From an uncultured Ruminococcus sp. (lineage in GTDB: Bacteria; Bacillota; Clostridia; Oscillospirales; Ruminococcaceae), in assembly GCF_946415235.1 (NCBI RefSeq), contig NZ_CAMKRR010000009.1, positions 1,276-65,275 of the forward strand: 64,000 nt of DNA, in the 5' to 3' direction. The notes beneath the pieces are model-generated. The model had not been told where the DNA came from and did not search any database. It saw only the letters and a list, made by a program, of their open reading frames with translations. The first letter of the stretch is position 1. Every line of letters begins with the position of its first letter. Positions 53,422 through 53,730 of this stretch are shown here, in pieces. The translations under genes and the position numbers were made by a program.

Positions 53422-53454
53422 TTTTACTTATGCTCCTTGAAATACATTTATGAT

Positions 53455-53511
53455 AAAGGCAGTCTGCGGAGTATGGGAGATTCAGGTTTAATAATATCCG
53501 CAGACGCCCTT
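53455..53511 (-). other. Long hairpin in the pyrG 5' leader
   Basis: aaaggc-agtctgcgga ... tccgcagac-gccctt with a ~26-nt loop, just upstream of the pyrG RBS. Confidence 0.6.
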
Positions 53512-53610
53512 AACAGCTTATGAACGTTCATGCTCCTTCGAATTGCGGAACGATGTAAGTATCATGCATGGCTTGATAAAAAACAAATGGGTGCAGAAGT
53601 CCTGAGACTT

Positions 53611-53689
53611 CATACACCCCTTTGTGTATGGAATTAGCGCTTAAACCAAAAAAGAGAGCTACGGATACCATATCCGCAGCTCCCTTGCT
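53611..53689 (-). promoter_or_regulatory. pyrG-operon attenuator: ANTAR-type hairpin / terminator / second ANTAR-type hairpin
   Basis: Minus strand AGC-AAGGGA-GCU (53689-53678) overlaps the 5' arm of a 14-bp terminator (53684-53654) with U-tract; then CAUACAC-AAAGGG-GUGUAUG (53630-53611). Confidence 0.75.
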
Positions 53690-53701
53690 GTTTACAATGC
53701 C

Positions 53702-53730
53702 ATTATAGACCTTTGTGGGAGATTTGTCAA
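53702..53730 (-). promoter_or_regulatory. Consensus SigA promoter of the pyrG-glnA-dapF-dapL operon
   Basis: Minus strand TTGACA-17-TATAAT. Confidence 0.88.

Follow-up and report, generated by a model that had tools for sequence, protein, structure and literature searches.

The window analysed here is a 64,000-nt stretch of a contig from an uncultured Ruminococcus sp. Its pyrG gene, present as a single copy in the genome, encodes a CTP synthase of 531 aa and lies on the minus strand (51826–53438 including the ribosome-binding site AAGGAG; CDS 51826–53421), with gltB divergent from it on the plus strand (53960 onward). The leader of pyrG is preceded by a sigma-70 promoter (53702–53730, minus strand) that matches the consensus at 12 of 12 positions, with TTGACA at 53730–53725, a 17-nt spacer and TATAAT at 53707–53702, and that predicts a transcription start site (TSS) at about G53695. 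The initial annotation of this leader had described ANTAR-type hairpins on both sides of one terminator, followed by a small hairpin and a long hairpin. All of these structures were found on the minus strand, but they are organized as two tandem single-hexaloop units, H1/T1 and H2/T2.

The first hairpin, H1 (53677–53690, minus strand; AGCAAGGGAGCUG), is an ANTAR-type hexaloop hairpin, CAGC-AAGGGA-GCUG, whose first base lies 5 nt past the predicted TSS. The H1 loop and 3′ arm constitute the base of the 5′ arm (AAGGGAGCUGCGG) of T1 (53646–53686, minus strand; stem 53686–53652), an intrinsic terminator with a UGG loop and a U6 run. The overlap of T1 with H1 and its two G-U pairs were as previously described, and the stem comes to 16 bp when two A-U pairs are counted. 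The second ANTAR-type hexaloop hairpin, H2 (CAUACAC-AAAGGG-GUGUAUG; 53611–53630, minus strand), begins 17 nt downstream of the T1 U-run, after a linker that contains the palindrome AGCGCU (53636–53641, minus strand). The H2 loop and 3′ arm serve in turn as the 5′ arm of a second terminator, T2 (53575–53620, minus strand), composed of GGGGUG..GAAGUC-UCAG-GACUUC..CACCC and the tail AUUUGUUUUUU. The initial annotation had missed T2; the small gaagtc/gacttc hairpin that it reported is present, but is part of this terminator and not a separate element. As H2, the small hairpin, CACCC and the U-run together form T2, the layout is promoter, H1/T1 and H2/T2, and the leader consists of two attenuators in tandem; in each of them a single AANGGN hexaloop hairpin overlaps the 5′ arm of the terminator belonging to that unit. 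Approximately 60 nt without structure lie between T2 and T3 (53455–53511, minus strand), a long hairpin with a weak U-rich tail that corresponds to the amtB/PII-pyrG intergenic hairpin of the genus.

The whole leader is predicted to be more stable than shuffled sequences (z=−6.2; 0 of 200 shuffles). Predicted folding energies were −3.7 kcal/mol for H1 versus −24.2 kcal/mol for T1, and −7.0 kcal/mol for H2 versus −20.4 kcal/mol for T2. The weakness of H1 and H2 relative to the strong T1 and T2 suggests that termination is the default outcome and that a stabilizing factor would be needed to prevent it. Structure statistics were obtained from 70 distinct leader copies, except that covariation of T1 was assessed in a 32-sequence alignment. 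The −35 and −10 hexamers are conserved across the 70 copies while the spacer is not. T1 (12–20 bp) and T2 (13–34 bp), both with U-rich tails, are present in 70 of 70 copies, and in all of these H1 and T1, as well as H2 and T2, are mutually exclusive. T1 was 95 % paired, with compensatory double changes in 8 of 15 pairs and a score that none of 500 shuffles matched; the apical stem of T2 also covaries among the 70 copies. For the two hexaloop hairpins, 98.6 % of alignment cells were paired. Double changes occur in two pairs of H2 (5 of 500 shuffles), and where these pairs have changed the 3′ arm of T2 is altered too, as expected for a strand shared by both structures. In H1 the stem CAGC/GCUG does not vary except for replacement of A-U by G-U, so covariation speaks neither for nor against it.

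Loop consensus sequences in the 70 copies were A-A-R-G-G-N for H1 and A(91 %)-A-N-G-G-G for H2, both of the form AANGGN. Every copy has G4 in both loops, and A1 is found in 70 of 70 for H1 and 64 of 70 for H2; in the remaining six, G replaces A1 and the hairpin can shift register to AAGGGG. Since G4–G6 and A1–A2 also pair within the terminators, this conservation is not independent evidence of protein contact. Both show what the definition of ANTAR targets asks of the individual hairpin (a stem of at least 3 bp and a hexaloop with A1 and G4; Ramesh 2012), and each overlaps the 5′ part of a terminator with which it is mutually exclusive.

Comparison with known ANTAR sites points in the same direction. 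At 12 of 13 bases, H1 agrees with AGCAANGRRGCUY, the ANTAR motif of the Enterococcus eut leaders; in E. faecalis this motif overlaps the four eut terminators in their 5′ part. H1 also resembles the GnfR site CAGGCAANGGCGCC, which precedes amtB, glnK and nif terminators in Geobacter and for which binding and antitermination have been shown (PMC2995071); the version of H1 in the leaders of the amtB paralogs (CAGCAAGGGCGCUG) is nearly identical to that site. Two ANTAR (PF03861) genes were identified in the genome with Pfam, each directly after a glutamine-synthetase-like gene. One such pair lies in the window on the plus strand (glutamine-synthetase-like gene, 60006–61280; pseudo-receiver ANTAR gene, 61293–61874), in a gltB-gltD-GS-like-ANTAR-purF-asnB cluster, and is the candidate regulator pair. 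When the local ANTAR protein was aligned to EutV, the phospho-acceptor Asp was found to be Val, the RNA-contact residues K147, K149, E160, M172, N173 and R175 were retained, and Y164 was replaced by His, as in AmiR. The match to the eut motif, the AANGGN loops and the presence of two ANTAR genes, one of them 8 kb away, uphold the original designation of these hairpins as ANTAR-type. Within the genus, 150 of 161 genomes have ANTAR genes, and among the 11 genomes without one the leader was detected only in a 71 %-complete assembly. The distance from leader to ANTAR gene is approximately 8.1 kb in more than 20 genomes, with the same synteny as in the window. A literature search for ANTAR regulation in Ruminococcus found nothing. 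An ANTAR gene that stops approximately 20 nt upstream of pyrG was seen in two other families of the order (L022/G038 and L026/G028); as the two genes adjoin in those families, pyrG appears to be tied to the ANTAR nitrogen system beyond the genus.

An alternative, to which we assign a low but appreciable probability, is that the terminators are overridden by a factor other than an ANTAR protein (another protein, a small RNA or a metabolite), or that they are constitutive dampers of a strong promoter. The terminators themselves account in part for the loop conservation, and a conserved palindrome between T1 and H2, described below, represents at least one further functional element in the leader. 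Against this, the 5′ arms CAGC and CAUACAC are conserved and paired although neither belongs to a terminator, and the arm of H1 is conserved even in other families, while known ANTAR sites match the motif and ANTAR genes co-occur and are syntenic with the leader. Searches for other types of regulator were negative: an Rfam covariance-model scan of 52900–54300 (E≤10) returned only chance-level matches (E≥0.26), no complex conserved fold was found beyond the leader hairpins, and this genome has no gene for CsrA, which binds GGA loops. On the basis of these comparisons, ANTAR antitermination at H1/T1 and H2/T2 appears well supported, each terminator probably being overridden by a nitrogen-sensing ANTAR protein acting on one hairpin. 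What the sequences show directly is the structures with their conservation and covariation, the motif match, the presence and synteny of the regulator gene and the deletion history described below; protein binding, the nitrogen signal and the sufficiency of one hairpin are what we infer.

A genome scan detected the same unit, a single hexaloop hairpin with a terminator, at five more sites, mostly 4–8 nt past a consensus promoter. One of these is the gltB leader (53832–53913, plus strand), in which a promoter is followed by the hairpin AAC-AAAGAC-GUU overlapping a terminator (53873–53913), the same design as H1/T1. The other four, outside the window (contig C118 of G000 at +6081, −5989, −2887 and −1496), precede a nadE-like gene (AGC-AAGGGC-GCU), a GNAT-like operon (AGC-AACGGU-GCU), an internal membrane-protein gene (UGAGC-AAGGGG-GCUUA; this copy is intergenic and follows directly on a stop codon) and a citrate-synthase-like gene (AAGC-AAUGGC-GCUU). 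Stems vary among the units of this genome (AGC, AAGC, UGAGC, AAC and CAUACAC), but loop and RC/GY closing pairs are retained, as predicted for a hairpin recognized by a protein. When other families of the order were searched with a covariance model of the leader, the arrangement promoter-GUAAACAGCAANGGNGCUG-terminator was detected upstream of amtB, asnA and the type III glutamine synthetase gene glnN (L221–L231), as single and not tandem units. This indicates that the Ruminococcus amtB/pyrG leader comprises two such units in series. In the units of other families a 5′ GUAAA is conserved, although it lies outside both hairpin and terminator. A further A1/G4 hexaloop, GGAUC-AAUGGC-GCUCC with one U-C mismatch, is located between the gltB terminator and ribosome-binding site (53930–53955, plus strand), with no terminator overlapping it.

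The accepted ANTAR target is a pair of hairpins, and EutV, the subject of the only mechanistic work, requires both. In the eut leaders the hairpins must be 5–12 nt apart, and adding 20 nt to the linker abolishes antitermination (PMC3369931, PMC8934654). A EutV dimer makes contact with just one hexaloop, and whether a single hexaloop can function was left open (Walshe 2022, PMC8934654). The pyrG leader lacks the tandem P1/P2 arrangement with a short linker (5–12 nt in eut; Ramesh 2012) and is a candidate for the minimal motif of Walshe 2022, a single hexaloop with a flipped G4 that an ANTAR dimer recognizes: it has the sequence features of this motif, and the contact residues are kept in the local ANTAR protein. 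An upstream partner hairpin is lacking, since only 5 nt separate the predicted TSS from H1. When all A1/G4 hexaloop hairpins in the 70 leaders and their promoters were listed as potential canonical P1 elements, only H1 and H2 recurred; candidates upstream of the TSS were sporadic (11 of 70) and at differing positions. The initial annotation had allowed that an upstream TSS might supply a canonical first hairpin, and no such TSS or partner is conserved among the leader copies. The linker palindrome was rejected as a P1, a 3–5 bp stem with an AGCGCU hexaloop being present in only 9 of 70 copies. A genome-wide scan for dual hairpins before terminators found none that was convincing. The leader of the citrate-synthase-like gene has a possible P1 (AUUAU-AAUGGU-AUAGU), which overlaps the predicted −10.

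H1 and H2 might instead be the P1 and P2 of one split site that brackets T1 and is bound by one dimer, given that the two hexaloop hairpins on this one RNA resemble each other in loops and closing pairs and that ANTAR proteins act as dimers. We consider this very unlikely. H2 is still untranscribed at the time when T1 must be overridden, and it has a terminator of its own in T2. The spacing between H1 and H2 is variable (41–95 nt), spans a terminator and includes lineage-specific insertions, which form hairpins in some species, in contrast to the 5–12 nt tolerated by EutV. Lone hairpin/terminator units are found in the nadE, gltB, glnN and asnA leaders, and the EutV dimer touches only one hexaloop at a time. 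The earlier proposal of ANTAR antitermination with a non-canonical geometry therefore survives as to ANTAR type but not as to geometry.

The leader is not specific to pyrG. A blastn query extending from the promoter to T2 matched 116 of 161 genomes of the genus, and this genome has two more copies, each directly upstream of an amtB paralog. Among 97 distinct copies, amtB is downstream in 86 and pyrG directly in nine. Fourteen of the amtB copies with enough downstream sequence run on into pyrG, indicating that the ancestral operon was leader-amtB/PII-pyrG. The nine copies that abut pyrG show at least seven different junctions, and in one (L053) the first amtB codons are joined to the last ones, a clear deletion scar. 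It was also observed that amtB/PII has been lost independently at least seven times in the genus, with the leader kept in front of pyrG on each occasion (L045–L048, L053, L059, L006, L010 and 53518–53578 of the window). Judged from these sequence comparisons, the pyrG leader is an amtB-type leader left by deletion of amtB/PII. This corrects the annotation from a pyrG-specific riboregulator to a genus-wide amtB leader joined to pyrG by deletion.

The region 53518–53578 (minus strand) is probably what is left, in decayed form, of the 3′ end of the amtB-PII fusion gene after its deletion; it aligns weakly to the end of a relative's protein (...YNALHDSEEWERS*), with a score of 25 compared to a maximum of 24 in 200 shuffles. 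Hairpins like T3, with a covarying stem, occur in the amtB-pyrG spacers of about 25 relatives. The remnant and T3 both trace to the amtB/PII-pyrG operon, which suggests that the further structure noted in the initial annotation is history and not part of a pyrG switch: the long hairpin that it reported is present, but as the intergenic hairpin next to a decayed gene remnant. Three other candidates in the leader were considered and rejected. A leader peptide at GAAGGAGCAUG was discarded because this stretch is the decayed gene remnant; a cre/CcpA site at ATGAACGTTCAT did not fit the consensus; and a third ANTAR unit, formed on T3 by a hairpin H3 (GAC-AAGGGC-GUC), was dismissed because H3 is not conserved, being found in some relatives only and degenerate here. 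The sequence ATGAACGTTCAT is a 12-nt perfect palindrome at 53520–53531 (minus strand), within the putative remnant, and is probably fortuitous.

Taken with the history of the locus, the reading that we favour, with reasonable confidence, is that a nitrogen-regulated amtB-type leader now drives pyrG through two single-hairpin ANTAR attenuators. In this mechanism a very strong constitutive promoter would start the transcript at approximately G53695. By default the transcript would end at T1, and transcripts escaping T1 would end at T2. Under shortage of nitrogen or glutamine, an ANTAR-domain antiterminator, likely the pseudo-receiver ANTAR protein encoded 8 kb away after the glutamine-synthetase-like gene, or its paralog, would bind nascent H1 and withhold the sequence at the base of the T1 stem, so that RNA polymerase passes T1. 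Similar binding at H2 would block T2, with no P1 partner at either attenuator. The gene itself would once have been distal in a leader-amtB/PII-pyrG operon, from which a deletion left the leader, the remnant and T3 in front of pyrG. A single-copy and presumably essential pyrG behind two strong terminators implies that readthrough is leaky or near-constitutive, or that the regulator is often active. A more tentative possibility, less probable than the general scheme, is that single hexaloops at the 5′ end suffice, that one dimer is passed from H1 to H2 beyond T1 and that the palindrome acts as a pause or spacing element; such a transfer would carry the 'successive binding' model over a terminator.

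In Bacillus and Lactococcus, CTP sensing is used for pyrG instead. The B. subtilis transcript reportedly starts with GGGC and undergoes G slippage when CTP is low (Meng, Turnbough and Switzer 2004); the resulting poly-G is made from three template C bases, and in Bacillus a C/U-rich terminator strand is needed to pair with it. Although the B. subtilis attenuator likewise controls pyrG through a promoter-proximal terminator, CTP-sensitive reiterative addition of G residues to the 5′ end, to pair with the terminator, can be dismissed with near certainty for the present leader, as every copy has GUAAAC, GUGAAC or AUAAAC at the predicted start, with no G-run before C (the absence of a GGGC start was noted initially), the 5′ arm of T1 is purine-rich (AAGGGAG) and not C/U-rich, and an identical leader drives two amtB genes in this genome. 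The two systems differ in terminator composition, in signal (CTP versus nitrogen, as proposed here) and in effector (RNA polymerase slippage versus a proposed RNA-binding protein).

Among characterized ANTAR systems, the EutV/EutW eut leaders share with the pyrG leader an AANGRR hexaloop hairpin with GC closing pairs that overlaps the 5′ part of a terminator (PMC3369931, PMC8934654), and EutV and the local ANTAR protein share the residues that contact G4. They differ in that eut leaders have a P1, whereas the Ruminococcus unit, lying only 5 nt into the transcript, has none and occurs as two tandem single units, each with its own terminator. Unlike EutV, the Ruminococcus regulator has a non-phosphorylatable receiver and no kinase, and its targets are nitrogen genes and not eut. 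The GnfK/GnfR system of Geobacter sulfurreducens also controls a nitrogen regulon (Ueki and Lovley 2010, PMC2995071); its ANTAR regulator binds CAGGCAANGGCGCC, which lies upstream of and overlaps the leader terminators in front of amtB, glnK and nif genes. However, GnfR is phosphorylated by a kinase and acts with RpoN-dependent promoters, in contrast to the pseudo-receiver and sigma-70 consensus promoter found here, and pyrG is not in the Geobacter GnfR regulon. The gene order of a glutamine synthetase gene followed by an ANTAR gene beside glutamate synthase genes is shared with Clostridium saccharobutylicum glnA-nitR(-gltAB) and with C. thermocellum Clo1313_2030. An ANTAR target has been predicted before C. 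thermocellum amtB (Ramesh Table S2; PMC4676874). The Clostridium sites are predicted and were modelled as dual hairpins, and no Ruminococcus or CTP synthase target is listed. AmiC/AmiR of Pseudomonas aeruginosa provides a precedent for a pseudo-receiver ANTAR protein that has His at the loop-stacking position and is controlled by a partner protein instead of phosphorylation; by analogy, the counterpart of AmiC in Ruminococcus may be the glutamine-synthetase-like protein, a putative partner.

The regulon combines ammonium uptake with the glutamine users GOGAT, PurF, AsnB, a NadE-like enzyme and PyrG, a composition that fits control by nitrogen or glutamine supply and not by CTP. If this is true, CTP synthase and glutamine amidotransferases would be under nitrogen, and not nucleotide, control in Oscillospirales of the rumen and gut, and the presumably essential pyrG of a major rumen fibre degrader would be tied to nitrogen status by a wiring that deletions have repeatedly preserved. 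ANTAR antitermination of nitrogen genes is itself known or predicted (GnfR; Ramesh 2012), with a hairpin pair as the accepted target. A single-hexaloop regulon is, from its sequence features, a candidate answer to the question raised by Walshe et al. (2022), and the leader, with its unit repeated in tandem here and recurring singly ahead of at least five other nitrogen operons of this genome, offers a natural test case of whether one hexaloop, a few bases from the transcript start, is enough during transcription.

Of 50 distinct linkers separating T1 from H2, 35 carry a perfect palindrome 8 nt or longer, compared to 8.6 % of shuffles. The palindrome is absent from the single-unit leaders of the genome examined (gltB, nadE-like and the GNAT-like operon), and in most species it does not have the length needed to fold. 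Its pairing with the arms of T1 was rejected as no co-variation was seen by inspection, and long-range pairing of the 5′ ACAGC with a downstream GCUGU box is lost in variants. The element is conserved as a palindrome and not as a sequence, reaching up to 16 nt with cores of GCGC, GUAC, ACGU or UAUA. Its two halves change together, giving AGCGCU, AGUACU, UGCGCA, UUGUACAA, UAACGUUA and others; G-U pairs alone preserve the palindrome in three cases.
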